Sequence record: MT446392.1
DNA length: 64,000 nucleotides
Strand: one strand, 5' to 3'
DNA from: Escherichia virus TH15
The notes beneath the pieces were generated by a model. That model did not search any database. It saw nothing but the letters and a program-made list of their open reading frames with translations, and was not told the origin of the DNA. Below, one piece after another: positions 7,761-50,639 of the stretch (position 1 is the first letter of the stretch; each line of letters opens with the position of its first letter). The position numbers and the translations under genes were made by a program.

Positions 7761-8360
7761 ATGTCAGGTTTATATAATCAAACTAACACGACTAACTTTA
7801 TATTAGAGGTAAGCGATTCAAACCTCACACAGACTTTTAAACTCAACGTTCAAGACGTTACCCTCCCAGGAGTTCACATCCCTGTTACAGATGTCCCGGG
7901 TGGAACACAAGGCATAAATCGCTCCAGTCTTCCTGGTAGTACAATAGAATTCGACCCGCTGATTGTTAACTTTCTGTGTGACAAAGACCTAAGGGCATGG
8001 CTTGATATCTATAAATGGATGCTCTCGCTTAACAACTACATCACACACGAATCAAAGGCATGGCATCCAAAGGGTCGTCCCGAAGCGGTCACGCTTCATA
8101 TCTTAGATAACAACAAGGACAAAATTGTCATGTCAATCCATTACTATGGAGCATGGCCGTCCGACCTGTCAGAGATTCAGTATTCATATAAAGAAGATTC
8201 TGACCCTGCTATCAACGCAACAGCAACTTTTAACTTTAAGTCTTTTGCTGTGGAAATTGATGGTATAATAATAGAAGGTAGACCACAGATTGATAGTAAT
8301 GCAGCAATGCAACAGGAAATCAGGTCTAAGTCAATGCATCCATCTATGAGAAACGTATGA
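7761..8360 (+). CDS. 3: tail completion / sheath stabiliser protein gp3
   Basis: ORF 7596..8360; start placed at Met 56 (MSGLYNQ..., 7761) after the end of gene 2; position as in T4. Confidence 0.6.
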   Translation: MSGLYNQTNTTNFILEVSDSNLTQTFKLNVQDVTLPGVHIPVTDVPGGTQGINRSSLPGSTIEFDPLIVNFLCDKDLRAWLDIYKWMLSLNNYITHESKAWHPKGRPEAVTLHILDNNKDKIVMSIHYYGAWPSDLSEIQYSYKEDSDPAINATATFNFKSFAVEIDGIIIEGRPQIDSNAAMQQEIRSKSMHPSMRNV

Positions 8361-9033
8361 AATTAATTGCGATTGTGGGTAAAAAACGCAGTGGTAAAGA
8401 TACGACTGCTGATTATGTTATTAGTCAAAACGGAACAAAGTGGCAACTTGCTGGTCCAATTAAAGAAGCGCTTTATAAAGCGTGGGTTCGTCAAGACCTG
8501 CCACACAATTTGACCCTGGAAAATTTTGATGGACAAGGTTATGACCGTGAAAAAACATTGATAATGAACAACACCGAAGCTCATATTCTTCTGGTTGATG
8601 CTCTTGAATGGTTAAAACAACAATATAATCTTGACCTTCCGAATCCAGATATGGTTCGTAAAATCATTGAATTTCACACACTAAATAATGTTGAGCCCTG
8701 GACAGTTAGACGTTTCATGCAGACCCTTGGAACTGACATCGTTTGTACAGAGTTCGACAGCATGTTTTGGATTAAAACTTTTGCATGCGATTATCTTGAC
8801 AACCTCTATTCTGGATATAAATATTACGTTGTCCCAGATGTTCGCCAAAAGAACGAACTTGATTCGCTTCGGGCGATGGGTGCTACAATAATCTTTGTAG
8901 AGCGCGATGAAGCAAATCATTCTACTGATACACACATTACGGAAGCTGGACTTCCACCACTAGCTAGTGACATTGTTATTAAAAACGATGGCACACTCGA
9001 AGAACTTTTTGATAAAATTAATAAGGTAATATA

Positions 9034-9034: not shown

Positions 9035-9724
<690 letters not shown>

Positions 9725-9725
<1 letters not shown>

Positions 9726-12533: not shown

Positions 12534-12607
12534 GGCCCTGTAGCTGGACGGTCAAGCGAGCGACTCATAATCGCTGGATGGTGGTTCGATTCCACCCAGG
12601 GCCACCA
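12534..12607 (+). tRNA. tRNA with anticodon CAU (Met, or Ile if lysidine-modified)
   Basis: Hand-folded cloverleaf: acceptor GGCCCTG/CAGGGCC, anticodon stem AGCGA/TCGCT with loop CTCATAA, T-arm GGTGG-TTCGATT-CCACC, encoded CCA. Confidence 0.7.
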
Positions 12608-12741: not shown

Positions 12742-12817
12742 CGAGGCATAGCTCAGAAGGAAGAGCAAGGACCTTCTAAGTCCTAGGTCGTAGGTTCGAT
12801 TCCTACTGTCTCGACCA
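12742..12817 (+). tRNA. tRNA-Arg (anticodon UCU)
   Basis: Hand-folded cloverleaf: acceptor CGAGGCA/TGTCTCG (one G-U), D-arm GCTC/GAGC with GG loop, anticodon loop CTTCTAA, T-arm GTAGG-TTCGATT-CCTAC, encoded CCA. Confidence 0.75.
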
Positions 12818-18763: not shown

Positions 18764-19723
18764 ATGATGTTAGTTATTGGCTCTCGCGCATTACATAACG
18801 CCGGTCTGATTGAAAGTAAGAAAATTGAAAACTCTGATTGGGATTTTATCGCTGACCAGGGTTCCTGGAACAGCTTTAAAACCCAGATGATGGGGCAGCA
18901 TGTTCATGTGGATAACCCAGATGTGCAAGCTTTTAAATGTATGCACAATGGTAAAGAAACTTATTTTGAAGCGTACATCGTCCGCGCACTGACAAGTGTT
19001 CGTGAGTTGACTGATGAGTTGCAAGAGGAAGATTTTACTTCCAGTTATCGTCTGCTCAAATATGCAAAGGCAAATATTCAGAAAGACCGTCTATCTGGTT
19101 TTTACTGGGCGACCCCTGATATTTGTCTGGCAATTAAATTGTCTCATCGTTACCTGAAGAACAATCCATTCTTCCTGAAGACAATGAGCCATATTAATTA
19201 CCTTCGTAATAAGGGTGTTGTTCTTAATGATGAACTACAAAAAATCATGCAACAACGACAGGCAGAAACACTGTCATATAGTCACCCTAAACTAGACGTG
19301 GGCAAGAAAACTTTCTTTAATGATACAATCTATACCCTTGACCATGACTCCATCCACGAGGCCGTGGCGCTTGCTGATAAGCCTGCATATAAGTTCTATA
19401 TGAAGGATGATTCAGAAGTCATGACCTCACGTGAAAAATTTGAAGCACTCCCTGATGTTATTAAACTGGCAGGGGTTTATGAAGAAGCATGTGTGCTCGC
19501 TCTGGAGCGTTCGCAGGTTCCTAACGAGTTTAGTATCCCGGCCAGTCATAGCTTCCATATGGCTCTGGAAAAAGTCTGCACCTCCATTACTTCTGGATGG
19601 TTTCGTGAGTATGCCTGGGAACATTACCAGGATGTGGTTAATATGTACAACACCCTGGGTCGCGAAGACTATGTTAAACGTTTCAAGGCTAACCAGCATT
19701 TAATTCGTCCTTTTTCAAAATAA
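18764..19723 (+). CDS. Pol-beta-superfamily nucleotidyltransferase-like protein (function unknown)
   Basis: 319 aa; N-terminal VIGSRA ... SDWDF ... ETYFEAYIV arrangement fits the hG[GS]-x(9-13)-D-x-[DE] minimal NTase signature. Confidence 0.4.
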   Translation: MMLVIGSRALHNAGLIESKKIENSDWDFIADQGSWNSFKTQMMGQHVHVDNPDVQAFKCMHNGKETYFEAYIVRALTSVRELTDELQEEDFTSSYRLLKYAKANIQKDRLSGFYWATPDICLAIKLSHRYLKNNPFFLKTMSHINYLRNKGVVLNDELQKIMQQRQAETLSYSHPKLDVGKKTFFNDTIYTLDHDSIHEAVALADKPAYKFYMKDDSEVMTSREKFEALPDVIKLAGVYEEACVLALERSQVPNEFSIPASHSFHMALEKVCTSITSGWFREYAWEHYQDVVNMYNTLGREDYVKRFKANQHLIRPFSK

Positions 19724-30317: not shown

Positions 30318-30500
30318 ATGATTACTTTAGAACAAATTGAAAAAATTATTAAACTCGCTCGCGATATTGAAATTGACTCATATGAACTAGCTGTTGAACA
30401 TTGCGAAGGATATTCATATTCTGGGATAGAGCAGTGCAAACGTGATTTAAATGGTTCTAAAGAAAAATTAGTCGCTTATCTAAACGAGTTGAAAGCATAA
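30318..30500 (+). CDS. hypothetical small protein
   Basis: 60-aa ORF. Confidence 0.4.
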   Translation: MITLEQIEKIIKLARDIEIDSYELAVEHCEGYSYSGIEQCKRDLNGSKEKLVAYLNELKA

Positions 30501-30757
30501 TGGCTGTTGGATTTGCAAAAGATGGTGCTGAACAGTTAGAGATGGAAGCGGTTGTACAAGCCGCTATCACCCATGCGAGAGCACAGGTTTCAGTTGAAAG
30601 GGAGTCTGCTAAATTCTGTTTTGACTGCGATGAAAAAATTCCTGAAGCGCGGAGACAAGCGATTAAAGGTGTGATATATTGTGTTGGTTGCCAATCAATG
30701 CATGATAAAGTTTTTAAACGTGAGCCACGTAACTGTTGGCATAGGAGCATGAGATGA
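30500..30757 (+). CDS. TraR/DksA-family C4 zinc-finger protein
   Basis: 85 aa; CFDCDEKIPEARRQAIKGVIYCVGCQ matches the C4-type zinc finger of the TraR/DksA family. Confidence 0.5.
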   Translation: MAVGFAKDGAEQLEMEAVVQAAITHARAQVSVERESAKFCFDCDEKIPEARRQAIKGVIYCVGCQSMHDKVFKREPRNCWHRSMR

Positions 30758-31076: not shown

Positions 31077-31631
31077 ATGATTATTGAAAAATCTGGGTTG
31101 TTTGGTGACCTGACTGCCGATGTAATTGATAATGCAATCGTGCTTAAACAAGAAGATGATACAGTCGTTTTGACCATTCAAGATATTCAGAACCTGTACG
31201 AGTTGTCTGTTATTGATGCAGAGCAGTATATTCGAACTCGTAATCGTGTCTTTAAAATTAACGATGAAGTTGTGGCTTGGTTGTATCGAGGTGAAAATGG
31301 CTTTAATCTGGAAACCGAATGGGCTTGTTTATCCATTAAAAACCGTTCAGAATTTTTAGAGAAAATTTTTAAACTCTTCCAAGAAGAGTGTGTACCTGAG
31401 CTCGAATGGAAAATCCCCGGTTGTGATGCTATTATACATTCAAGCGAAACCTTTGAAGGTGATGAAGAAGGTGATTATAATACTGAATTCAGTGTCTACC
31501 AATATCAAGGTCGCGATATGTTATCTATCATCCAGACCCACGGTGGTGAAGCTGAAGTAGTATTCACTAAAGACGAATTAAAAGTTCTGGTAAAATACCT
31601 GAACACTGTTATCCCAACTATGAACCCTTAA
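31077..31631 (+). CDS. hypothetical protein
   Basis: 184-aa ORF with SD gaggaaa. Confidence 0.5.
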   Translation: MIIEKSGLFGDLTADVIDNAIVLKQEDDTVVLTIQDIQNLYELSVIDAEQYIRTRNRVFKINDEVVAWLYRGENGFNLETEWACLSIKNRSEFLEKIFKLFQEECVPELEWKIPGCDAIIHSSETFEGDEEGDYNTEFSVYQYQGRDMLSIIQTHGGEAEVVFTKDELKVLVKYLNTVIPTMNP

Positions 31632-31641
31632 GGAAAATATT

Positions 31642-32094
31642 ATGATTATCAATACAAACTCTTGGCACGCTAAATTACACGACCGTTTTTATGACCGTCA
31701 TTCTCGACCACACTCTTTGTGTGCTTACTTCTGGAAAATTGTATGGGCCTGTTTTGTTTGTGCAGGTTTTATTGGCAGTACAGTCTTCTGCTTAACTGTT
31801 GCAGGTGCTGGTGTATTGGAGCAGTTCTTTGTATTAAGTATTCCGGTTGGTTTAGGGCTAGGGTTTATTTTAGGACTGGCTACAATGGCTATTATTCTGG
31901 CGGTAGTATTTGGTTTAATGTATGGTCTAATGAATTTATGGTCCTGGTATGATTTACGTAAAGAAGAAAAAGAATGGGAACGAATTAAAGCTGGGCGTGA
32001 AGGCCGAGAAACTAAAGAAAACGTTTTCATTCAATATATCAAAGCTCGTAAATCTAAGATGTGCCCGGTAATCCATTTTGAGGCGAAGAAATGA
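31642..32094 (+). CDS. membrane protein
   Basis: 150 aa; multiple hydrophobic segments. Confidence 0.5.
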   Translation: MIINTNSWHAKLHDRFYDRHSRPHSLCAYFWKIVWACFVCAGFIGSTVFCLTVAGAGVLEQFFVLSIPVGLGLGFILGLATMAIILAVVFGLMYGLMNLWSWYDLRKEEKEWERIKAGREGRETKENVFIQYIKARKSKMCPVIHFEAKK

Positions 32095-33101
32095 GAACAG
32101 TTATGAAGGGCTATTTTGGCTCACATCTTTATGGAACAAGTACTCCGGAATCTGATGTTGATTTTAAAGAAATCTTTGTTCCACACCCACGTGACATTCT
32201 GTTAGGTACGGCTATGAACCATACCAACTTGAACACGAATAATACGGCATCCAAAAACACTAAAGACGATGTTGACCACGAGCTTTATAGTCTGAAATAT
32301 TTCTTTAAACTGGCGGCTGAAGGCGAAACTGTTGCTCTGGACATGATTCACACTCCGGCTAACCTGGTAGTCAAATCCGATTTACCAGATGTATGGAAGT
32401 TTATCCAAGACAACCGTTCACGGTTCTATACGACCAACATGAAAGCATATTTGGGGTACGTCCGTAAGCAAGCTTCAAAATATGGTGTTAAAGGTTCTAG
32501 ACTGGCTGCTTTACGTGGTGTACTGGCAATTGTTAACCAGATTCCTGAACAGTGGGTTGACTACCAAGAAGATGGTTCGACTAAACAACGTCGCACTAAA
32601 GTTGAAGATATTAAGCATCGTCTCCCAGAGAACGAATTCTGTGAATGGGTATTCCATAACCATGAGAAAACTGGCCCTCAAACGTTTTATACTGTTCTCG
32701 GTCGCAAATACCAAACTACTTTGTCATTAATCGAGCTTAAGCAATCTCTGAATAAACTTGATGCTGAATATGGTGAACGTGCTCGTAAGGCTGAAGCTAA
32801 CGAAGGTATTGACTGGAAAGCTCTGAGCCACGCTTATCGTGCTGGATATCAGTTGAAGGAAATTTATATGACCGGTGACCTTCAATATCCTTTACGAACA
32901 GCCCCATTTATCCTTGAAATCAAACAAGGGCTACATGCTTTTAAAGATGTACAGGCTGAACTTGAAGCTATCGTTGATGAAGTCGAAACTAATGCCATCT
33001 GGGCTGCTAAGAACGGTATGCCCGATAAGGTAGACATGAAGTTCTGGGACAAGTTTGTTGAAGAGGTATATCTTGACAACCACAATTCCTATTATTGTTA
33101 A
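32091..33101 (+). CDS. nucleotidyltransferase (Pol-beta superfamily) domain protein
   Basis: 336 aa; N-terminal GSHLYGTSTPESDVDF is a clear G[GS]-x(9-13)-D-x-D NTase signature. Confidence 0.5.
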   Translation: MRTVMKGYFGSHLYGTSTPESDVDFKEIFVPHPRDILLGTAMNHTNLNTNNTASKNTKDDVDHELYSLKYFFKLAAEGETVALDMIHTPANLVVKSDLPDVWKFIQDNRSRFYTTNMKAYLGYVRKQASKYGVKGSRLAALRGVLAIVNQIPEQWVDYQEDGSTKQRRTKVEDIKHRLPENEFCEWVFHNHEKTGPQTFYTVLGRKYQTTLSLIELKQSLNKLDAEYGERARKAEANEGIDWKALSHAYRAGYQLKEIYMTGDLQYPLRTAPFILEIKQGLHAFKDVQAELEAIVDEVETNAIWAAKNGMPDKVDMKFWDKFVEEVYLDNHNSYYC

Positions 33102-33107
33102 ATTCTA

Positions 33108-33134
33108 AGGACCCTTCGGGGTCCTTTTTTATTT
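33108..33134 (+). terminator. rho-independent terminator (UUCG-loop hairpin)
   Basis: AGGACCC-TTCG-GGGTCCT followed by TTTTTT. Confidence 0.7.
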
Positions 33135-33143
33135 TAAAAAGTA

Positions 33144-33173
33144 GTGTACAACAAGATGGTCATGAGGCATAAT
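33144..33173 (+). promoter_or_regulatory. early promoter cassette: -35 GTGTAC, -10 CATAAT, ACTGAGTTACC leader
   Basis: 18-nt spacer; leader GATTCCATACTGAGTTACCAAATAAAAACGGGAG. Confidence 0.55.
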
Positions 33174-33213
33174 GATTCCATACTGAGTTACCAAATAAAA
33201 ACGGGAGAATAAA

Positions 33214-33420
33214 ATGTTAGAATTAATCAAAGCTGCTGGTGAAAAAGGTCTGATGGTTAACACTCGTGACCCTGAACAACGTCAAGCATTTGGTGAGTTA
33301 AAAGCCAAAGGTCTGGTTAAAGCATCCCTTGGTATTGGTAATGCTTTGCGTGTGACTTTGACCCCTGCAGGTAAAGCAATGTTCTTCCCTAAACCATTAC
33401 CAAAACGTCGTCGCAAGTGA
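33214..33420 (+). CDS. hypothetical basic small protein
   Basis: 68-aa ORF behind a promoter cassette. Confidence 0.45.
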   Translation: MLELIKAAGEKGLMVNTRDPEQRQAFGELKAKGLVKASLGIGNALRVTLTPAGKAMFFPKPLPKRRRK

Positions 33421-49329: not shown

Positions 49330-49755
49330 TTGAATAGAGAGAATATTATGAACAACGTAACTGCTAAAGATATCCAAGTTAAAACCATCCGCACCGACGC
49401 TAACCCACATAACCAAAACCGCATCCGTAAATCCTGGGTCCTGGCATGTGATGAAGTATCTGCCACCCGTCTGAAATCACTTCCTCAAGAAGTTAAATTT
49501 ATGTTGTATGGTGTTATTGATACTGATGTATCTGATAAGTGGATTGAACTGATGCAACGTCATTACACCGAATCTCTGGCAGCTGGTGCTAAACTGGTTA
49601 TCGACCGTGACGGCTCCGAACGTCTAGAAGATGATTACTGTGTTGACTTCGATGACCACCTGGTCCAAGCTGGTTCTATTATTGCTGCGCAACTTCCAGA
49701 GTATATTGAATCTCTTCCGGAAGCTATCCGCAAACAAATGGCAGTTGTTGCGTGA
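49330..49755 (+). CDS. hypothetical protein (position corresponds to T4 rpbA/45.2)
   Basis: 141-aa ORF upstream of the gene 45 cluster. Confidence 0.4.
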   Translation: MNRENIMNNVTAKDIQVKTIRTDANPHNQNRIRKSWVLACDEVSATRLKSLPQEVKFMLYGVIDTDVSDKWIELMQRHYTESLAAGAKLVIDRDGSERLEDDYCVDFDDHLVQAGSIIAAQLPEYIESLPEAIRKQMAVVA

Positions 49756-50639
49756 ATTTGATTTATAAAATAACCTTTATAACAAGGGAACAAAATAACG
49801 AATTCCCTTGTTATTATATTGGTTCAAAGGTTGATGCGACATTTAACGGTCAAAATATTCTCGACAAAAATAATAAAATTTATACAGGTTCTCCGAATTC
49901 AAAATACACTAAGCTGTATAATGAATTGATTGATAGAGGTGACTATATTGTTACTATCATTGGAGAAACAAAGCAGGACCCAAGAAAAATAGAAAATATT
50001 TTTCAAATGTCAGTTAAAGCTGTAACCAATGAGAAGTACTTTAATAAAACGTATGCTCACGACCAAAGCCGGTATGATGCTCCTGGATATGCTCCATACC
50101 GAAACTTGAAAACAGGTAAAGTCGTTAAATTGCATCCATCTGAACTTACATCTGATTATGTTGGTGTTCGTAAAGACTGCTCAATTTCGGATAAGCACAT
50201 TCAAGCAATTAAAGACTTTCAAAAAGAATATTGGACTGCCGAAGCTCGACAAGCAAGGTCTATTGAAGTCAAAAATCGTTATAAAGATGCCGAGTATGCT
50301 TTAAAATTCAAAGTTATAATGAATACATCTGAAGTATACGAAAAATATTTAAAATCAATTACTGAATATTGGAATAATTCAGATAATAGAATAAAGGCTT
50401 CAAAACGAGCAACTGAAAGAAATGCTAGTCCTGAGTTTAAAGAAAAATTTAGGAAATCCAAAGCAAGGGGAACCTGGTTGCAGTATGAAGATGAACTTAA
50501 AACATTGTGGAATGCTTTAGGTCAACCGGGGTATATTAAGTTTAGAAAACACGCCATTGAACATGGGTTTAATGATGAAAATTATCAGGGTGCAATCCGG
50601 TCCTGGTCAAATTATTATGTTAATAGGAAAATGAAATGA
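49752..50639 (+). CDS. GIY-YIG homing endonuclease (Seg-like)
   Basis: 295 aa; N-terminal LIYKITFITREQNNEFPCYYIGSK is a GIY-(13 aa)-YIG module; lysine-rich repeats follow. Confidence 0.6.
   Translation: MNLIYKITFITREQNNEFPCYYIGSKVDATFNGQNILDKNNKIYTGSPNSKYTKLYNELIDRGDYIVTIIGETKQDPRKIENIFQMSVKAVTNEKYFNKTYAHDQSRYDAPGYAPYRNLKTGKVVKLHPSELTSDYVGVRKDCSISDKHIQAIKDFQKEYWTAEARQARSIEVKNRYKDAEYALKFKVIMNTSEVYEKYLKSITEYWNNSDNRIKASKRATERNASPEFKEKFRKSKARGTWLQYEDELKTLWNALGQPGYIKFRKHAIEHGFNDENYQGAIRSWSNYYVNRKMK

Follow-up and report, generated by a model that had tools for sequence, protein, structure and literature searches.

A 64,000-nucleotide stretch of DNA from Escherichia virus TH15 (sequence record MT446392.1; hereafter 'the window') carries an ortholog of phage T4 nrdC.11 at 32091..33101 (+ strand). 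By analogy with characterized bacterial relatives, we consider it fairly probable that the encoded protein restores nucleotides at broken RNA 3' ends, working with the phage's Pnkp and RNA ligase 1 (Rnl1) against anticodon nucleases. The protein has the fold of a Pol-beta nucleotidyltransferase (NTase), belongs to the RlaP family (PF10127) and has the invariant catalytic residues of its clade, whose cellular members occur in RNA-repair operons. Its substrate, reaction and biological role are what we infer, from bacterial homologs with which NrdC.11 has only the catalytic core in common. The sequence itself adds nothing new, as the gene is known and already annotated as a member of the RlaP family. 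Two points are added here: beyond the catalytic core, NrdC.11-type proteins depart from the characterized RlaPs, and bacterial repair operons contain a gene of this clade next to one for canonical RlaP. This divergence and pairing give a concrete reason against assuming that results obtained with the Pseudomonas enzymes transfer to the T4 protein.

The open reading frame (ORF) runs from ATG to TAA and encodes 336 residues, with the N-terminus MRTVMKGYFGSHLYGTSTPESDVDF. An earlier sequence-only reading of the window had singled it out by a G-S-x10-D-x-D motif, and this description is exact: ten residues separate G10-S11 from D22-V23-D24, with G10, D22 and D24 invariant in an alignment of 102 sequences and S11 conserved in at least 90% of them. 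The same reading took the protein to be of unknown function and to correspond to no recognizable T4 protein, which is not the case. T4 NrdC.11 (AF158101.6 55441-56445, 'NrdC.11 conserved hypothetical protein'; CDD PHA02603) matches the ORF at 82.4% identity over its full length (100% coverage; tblastn), and full-length counterparts are present in 1,443 of 1,547 matching phage records in the same search. The sequence-only reading was therefore right in part: the motif and the fold stand, but 'unknown' and 'not T4' do not. The proteins from phages VR7 and VR25 are 99% identical to the window protein and annotated as nucleotidyltransferases by RefSeq; in VR7, the gene is named nrdC.11. The DNA around the ORF is 93-96% identical to that of coliphages VR7, VR25, VR26 and TH22, which are T4-like (Straboviridae, Tevenvirinae, Gaprivervirus). 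Judged by these similarities, the window is T4-like Gaprivervirus DNA, and the ORF is orthologous to nrdC.11, one of the conserved accessory genes of T4, and lies in the usual mobD-nrdC early block. The two proteins are alike in size, in their match to PHROG 388 and in position within the block, and they differ by ordinary sequence divergence only; the upstream neighbor here is a 150-residue membrane-protein ORF, whereas in T4 it is the homing endonuclease gene mobD.

Membership of the RlaP family is clear. The Pfam RlaP model matches the window protein with 41.9 bits against a gathering cut-off of 23 (E=1.2e-10), in an alignment limited to residues 8-134 (profile positions 25-142 of 249), and PHROG 388 ('nucleotidyltransferase') covers the protein end to end (E=1.9e-132). 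Because of this above-threshold Pfam match and the full-length PHROG match, the GS/DxD motif is not a chance occurrence, and the NTase fold proposed in the sequence-only reading is correct. An exhaustive search over 1.84 billion cluster representatives returned 3,052 related clusters at E<=1e-3 and 787 at E<=1e-30, nearly all of 300-350 residues and matching over their full length. Conservation was assessed on the window protein together with 101 representatives at 34-52% identity, the 102 sequences mentioned above, of which 101 match Pfam RlaP. Invariant throughout are G10, S21, D22, D24, Y131, K243, H247, R250 and P267; S11, D60, D62 and D84 are among further residues conserved in at least 90%.

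An AlphaFold2 (AF2) model built with this alignment is confident (mean predicted local distance difference test score (pLDDT) 94.9, predicted template-modelling score (pTM) 0.82) and divides the protein into four regions, all encoded on the + strand. The N-terminal NTase catalytic core (residues 1-95; 32091..32375) holds G10-S11, D22-x-D24, the third carboxylate D62 and the conserved residues D60 and D84; D22 and D24 open strand 2, and D62 lies at the beginning of the strand formed by residues 61-67. It is followed by a conserved, net-basic helical segment (residues 96-150; 32376..32540; net charge +7), modelled as helices between residues 99 and 149, with W102, R109, Y123, Q127, K130, Y131, K134 and R137 as conserved residues; this segment is a candidate surface for contacts with RNA or a nucleoside triphosphate (NTP). 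A variable beta-rich insert (residues ~151-210; 32541..32720), with predicted strands at 154-158, 164-168, 184-191, 195-202 and 205-208, is the least conserved part of the protein, with a mean top-residue frequency of 0.26 and a length of 36-72 residues among homologs. The C-terminal helical bundle (residues 211-336; 32721..33098) contains the invariant motif D241-W-K243-x3-H247-x2-R250 as well as P267, and ends in a helix at 316-335. Searching the sequences in the PDB returned no relative, either with the single protein or with the family profile. Structural comparison by Foldseek with Hailong HalB, kanamycin nucleotidyltransferase ANT(4') and the JCSG NTase-like protein 3c18 gave E values of at least 0.014 and template-modelling scores of at most 0.28, with 11-13% identity; the C-terminal parts, substrates and biology of these three proteins differ from those of the window protein.

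Canonical bacterial RlaPs, known from the RtcB-RlaP-RtcA operons of Pseudomonas fluorescens and P. aeruginosa, have the Pfam family and a homologous catalytic core in common with NrdC.11 and, judging by the AF2 model, a broadly similar two-part plan in which an NTase domain precedes a helical C-terminal domain. In the crystal structure of the P. fluorescens enzyme (PfRlaP), the helical domain forms a cleft with the NTase domain and the last helix packs back onto the latter (10.64898/2025.12.29.696909); the terminal helix of the AF2 model can be compared with this plan by outline only, the C-terminal sequences being unalignable. The canonical short RlaPs found at bacterial loci have ~255-290 residues, and one of them covers PF10127 positions 1-248 of 249 (E=1e-77). 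A short-RlaP profile picks out the ORF at 32091..33101 and no other ORF in the window. Comparison of a profile of 15 such aligned bacterial sequences with that of the NrdC.11-type proteins gives a match over the first ~90 residues only (Prob 93.8%, E=1.8e-7), in which G10-S11 pairs with the G-S of the short form, D22 and D24 with D42 and D44, D62 with the invariant third aspartate D75, and D84 with the invariant E97. Profiles trimmed to the C-terminal part (residues 96-336 or 210-336) show no similarity to canonical RlaP in hhalign (Prob <1%). A K-x3-[H/Y]-x2-R motif suspected to be common to long and short RlaPs was considered as a sign of homology and rejected on the same trimmed-profile result. 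Since the alignment with canonical RlaP is confined to the N-terminal ~90 residues, the NrdC.11-type proteins form a distinct 'long' subfamily, ~70-80 residues longer than the canonical form and with a beta-rich insert and an invariant C-terminal motif of their own. A published sequence similarity network (SSN) likewise places T4 NrdC.11, named there as an RlaP of unknown function, in cluster 5 and canonical RlaP in cluster 1a (10.64898/2025.12.29.696909).

The clearest evidence from gene context comes from cellular genomes. Long-clade proteins are encoded there at 32-51% identity over the full length, on contigs of up to 5.6 Mb, and 71 cellular loci with a callable long-RlaP gene make up the sample considered here. 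At 16 of these 71 loci, a gene for Pnkp, RtcB, Ro60, Rnl1, HAD-PNKP or a CCA enzyme lies within ~6 kb of the long RlaP gene; a canonical short RlaP gene directly 3' on the same strand, overlapping it or with near-zero spacing, is also found at 16 of the 71. One or the other neighbor is present at 29 of the 71 loci, and at 18 of the 37 that extend for at least 5 kb on both flanks. As a genome contains about one such repair operon at most, this frequency should be far above that given by random placement. In Nitrosospira (locus L133), the gene order is Ro60, RtcB, RtcA, long RlaP, short RlaP, Hen1, AAA, one further ORF and Pnkp; in Asticcacaulis (L156), it is Hen1, Pnkp, long RlaP and short RlaP; and at a third locus (L097), HAD-PNKP and an Rnl1-like gene adjoin the long RlaP gene. 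Tandem long-short pairs, several of them on Mb-scale contigs, include those at L098, L104, L112, L133, L154, L156, L167 and L170 (anchor at ~8001-8950 in each), and many of the pairs form part of RtcB/RtcA/Hen1/Pnkp/Ro60 operons. The founding RlaP paper, by Burroughs and Aravind in 2016, is said to have already set out the predicted role of the family. No description of the tandem pairing was found in the RlaP literature, in a search that lay outside this founding paper. 

Among phages, suggestive local contexts of this kind are seen mainly outside the T4-like group. In phiM12, two RNA ligase genes flank the NrdC.11-type gene; in Ruegeria phage V10, the gene lies within a tRNA cluster; metagenomic phages have genes for a CCA-adding enzyme, PTH2 and an Rnl2-type ligase within 10 kb of it; and on one contig, an HAD_PNKP gene overlaps its start. 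Three other non-T4 phage contexts that were examined contain no repair-type neighbor, and a further contig was of insufficient length for an assessment. At the level of the clade, the association with RNA repair that marks RlaP is therefore present, in cellular operons and in phiM12 and metagenomic phages, and it is absent locally in the window. In one divergent metagenomic phage (L008 10974..11978; L009 1529..2533), an AcrVA2-like gene (PF26125) lies directly 3' of the NrdC.11-type gene, with a CCA-adding enzyme and an Rnl2-type ligase farther 3'.

A reaction for NrdC.11 is suggested by the Pseudomonas enzymes. The RlaPs from P. fluorescens and P. aeruginosa add one or two nucleoside monophosphates (NMPs) to RNA 3'-OH ends, with little NTP specificity and a preference for Mn2+, and do not accept DNA or protein as substrates; they label full-length tRNAs in vitro and partly restore aminoacylation of a tRNA that is short of one anticodon-loop nucleotide (10.64898/2025.12.29.696909; Carruthers, Fatma and Huang, December 2025 preprint). 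Among the end-restoring NTases of jumbo phages, RlaP has been described as the most prevalent, with a distribution that mirrors that of RNA ligases, and it has been predicted to restore nucleotides removed by RloC-type nucleases ahead of ligation (Iyer et al. 2021). On this basis, the carboxylate triad D22/D24/D62 of NrdC.11, together with a divalent metal (Mn2+ in the characterized bacterial enzymes), would form a catalytic center for extending broken RNA at its 3'-OH by one or a few NMPs, with NTPs as donors. The chief substrate would be the 5' halves of tRNAs cut by host anticodon nucleases of the RloC type, which remove a nucleotide as well; resealing to full-length, functional tRNA would fall to phage Pnkp (pseT) and RNA ligase 1 (rnlA), whose genes lie in other parts of the genome. 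NrdC.11 would then act as an accessory counter-defence gene product, dispensable in permissive laboratory hosts; the T4 block nrdC.11-mobD.3 is deletable, as is to be expected of a conditional counter-defence gene.

Repair of tRNA by T4 Pnkp and Rnl1 is a textbook case of phage counter-defence, and a long-standing question is whether phages also have an answer to RloC-like nucleases, where the loss of a nucleotide means that simple religation yields a dead tRNA. NrdC.11, whose gene is conserved across more than 1,500 sequenced genomes of phages, is the obvious candidate for such an answer to nucleotide-excising nucleases.

Several points weigh against this assignment. The evidence for the reaction comes from bacterial enzymes that share detectably just the N-terminal ~90 residues with NrdC.11, and the substrate or product could differ because the remaining ~240 residues have no profile similarity to canonical RlaP. 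The pairing of long and short forms at 16 of 71 loci suggests that the two are not redundant, so that the long form may not perform the PfRlaP reaction; the recurrence of the pairing in bacteria lowers our confidence that the long form performs exactly this one. Linkage to RNA-repair genes is absent in the window, as in T4-like phages generally: among 77 mostly T4-like viral loci there is almost none locally, and the 64-kb window, with its single RlaP gene, contains no gene for an RNA ligase, Pnkp, RtcB, Ro60 or a CCA-adding enzyme. VR7, the closest annotated relative, does encode pseT and rnlA, ~86-90 kb from nrdC.11. The phage contexts outside the T4-like group form a small sample, taken without a formal background control. 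A literature search found no experimental paper on NrdC.11 itself, and no publication on nrdC.11 affecting plating on RloC or other defence systems.

A gene in the window, the gene 57B ortholog at 9270..9725 (+), is labelled 'RNA ligase' in the VR7 RefSeq record and was considered as local repair context. It was rejected, the label being misleading: the protein matches Pfam Acb1, an anti-CBASS 2H phosphodiesterase, with E=1.2e-59.

A more specific proposal, which we put forward only tentatively and regard as rather unlikely, is that the long RlaP is functionally distinct and not just a diverged copy: its C-terminal domain and insert might confer selectivity for the RNA end or the nucleotide, and T4-like phages might carry this selective form as a stand-alone antidote to RloC-like nucleases. 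That bacterial repair operons keep the long and short forms side by side argues for non-redundant roles. Non-specific addition by RlaP yields mostly wrong repair products (10.64898/2025.12.29.696909); if the proposal is right, a selective long form, for example one that restores the correct wobble nucleotide, would answer this problem.

Three other explanations, namely a partner or selectivity subunit, an enzyme of tRNA CCA-end repair, and an NTase for proteins or small molecules or a signal synthase, each have less support than restoration of broken RNA 3' ends. The first, which we think unlikely, also holds that the long form differs in function from canonical RlaP, here as a subunit that confers specificity or serves as a partner. 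It might, for example, associate with a second NTase or a ligase, or its additions might be of one defined nucleotide; damaged RNA would be read by the insert and C-terminal domain, and this form alone would have been retained in T4-like phages. The tandem gene pairs at 16 of the 71 cellular loci are in keeping with such a role, as are the C-terminal ~240 residues that cannot be aligned with canonical RlaP, the clade-specific invariant residues K243/H247/R250 and the fact that the insert is the most variable region. However, the invariance of the catalytic residues in the long form suggests that it is probably an active NTase itself, phages carry it alone, and the gene pairs may have arisen simply by an ancient duplication.

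NrdC.11 might instead rebuild trimmed or CCA-less tRNA 3' ends, as a repair or maturation enzyme that acts on these and not on anticodon-loop breaks. Class II CCA-adding enzymes and poly(A) polymerases also belong to the Pol-beta superfamily and carry out template-independent addition to RNA 3'-OH ends. In the family to which NrdC.11 belongs, NMPs are added to RNA 3'-OH with little NTP specificity, and full-length tRNAs become labelled in vitro. Certain phage homologs are encoded inside tRNA gene clusters or close to genes for PTH2 or other tRNA-related enzymes, and phage tRNA genes are present in the window. We nevertheless hold this explanation to be quite unlikely. The C-terminal domain of the window protein differs from those of the class II enzymes (PF01743), and the PolyA_pol/CCA-enzyme models PF01743, PF12627 and PF13735 do not match it even at E<=1. 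In several phages, a separate, bona fide CCA-adding enzyme (PolyA_pol+HD) is encoded near the NrdC.11-type gene, which points to distinct roles, and in cellular genomes the gene sits in operons for break repair (RtcB, RtcA, Pnkp, Hen1) and not at loci for tRNA maturation. Some T4 tRNAs need the host cca enzyme for their maturation, which suggests that T4 is without a CCA-adding activity of its own. The tRNA genes in the window are tRNA-Met(CAT) at 12534..12607 and tRNA-Arg(TCT) at 12742..12817 (both + strand); the VR7 stretch compared annotates tRNA-Met only.

Nucleotidylation of a protein or small molecule as an anti-defence device, be it by an MNT-like antitoxin that AMPylates a host HEPN toxin, an aminoglycoside-NTase-like modifier or a HalB/CD-NTase-like oligonucleotide or signal synthase, is highly improbable, given a likeness confined to the generic NTase core at 11-14% identity, scores below cut-off for the MntA equivalog (13.2 bits against 60) and NTP_transf_2 (13.8 against 21), a PADLOC search of the protein that found no defence system, CD-NTases and other defence NTases included, a specific family, RlaP, whose characterized members leave protein and DNA unmodified, and a gene context of RNA repair. 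The MNT/MntA-type enzymes are small, single-domain and paired with HEPN proteins, whereas the window protein has 336 residues with large extra domains, and features of such antitoxins or of toxin-type NTases (type VII toxin-antitoxin, AbiEii/MenT) were not found in it.

The sequence-only reading had also pointed to a second, weaker NTase-like ORF at 18764..19723 (+). This ORF exists, and encodes 319 residues in which G6, S7, D25 and D27 are invariant among 13 homologs; its classification as an NTase gained no support from profile and Pfam searches. Its counterpart in VR7 is VR7ORF136c, whose annotation notes similarity to a JS98 ORF and gives no T4 gene name, and the protein is apparently absent from T4. 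It matches Pfam DUF7277+DUF7275 and PHROG 2141 and is found in 731 phage records. Comparison with the long and short RlaP profiles revealed no similarity, and neither half has an NTase or HEPN Pfam match at E<=10; a weak profile match to the KEN/HEPN ribonuclease domain of RNase L (E=0.016) is centered on the invariant R148-N-x-G151. An AF2 model from the single sequence was unusable (pLDDT 36). The protein could be a fusion of NTase-like and HEPN-like parts, neither half being confirmed by profile methods.

Translation of nrdC.11 probably starts within the context at 32080..32094 (+), where a GAGG Shine-Dalgarno sequence, read directly from the DNA, lies 7 nt 5' of the ATG; the start codon overlaps the stop codon of the upstream membrane-protein ORF (31642..32094) as ATGA. 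Six nucleotides past the nrdC.11 stop codon begins a hairpin resembling an intrinsic terminator (33107..33136, +), with a perfect 8-bp stem around a UUCG loop (AAGGACCC-UUCG-GGGUCCUU) and a T-run. The transcription unit probably ends here; in the 5 kb scanned, five terminator-like sites were found against 3.1 +/- 1.7 in shuffled sequence, the hairpin at 33107..33136 being a consensus match only. Promoter-like sites were no commoner than in shuffled sequence (16 against 15.2), and no promoter was called.

Upstream and on the same strand as nrdC.11, an 85-residue ORF at 30500..30757 (+), 1.3 kb 5' of the gene, has a DksA/TraR C4 zinc finger (PF01258, E=3.3e-9), and the MobD.1 ortholog at 31077..31631 (+) has matches to the Pfam domains T4_y05I_N/C ('putative transcription factor'; E=2.5e-30 and 4e-21). 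Downstream, at 33102..33213, the window has no counterpart of two small ORFs (VR7ORF100c and 099c; L001 8074..8658) that sit 3' of VR7 nrdC.11, and an RB69-ORF102c-like gene starts at 33214, beyond the hairpin. In the public GenBank and UniRef entries for the window protein, many are named 'thioredoxin' and one 'HNH homing endonuclease'; a Pfam search found no thioredoxin domain in the protein, and the former label has apparently been carried over from the name of the nrdC locus. A shortened T4 record (OL964745.1; 159,752 bp) retains just the last ~38 codons of nrdC.11 (49715-49828), in keeping with a gene that laboratory growth does not require.

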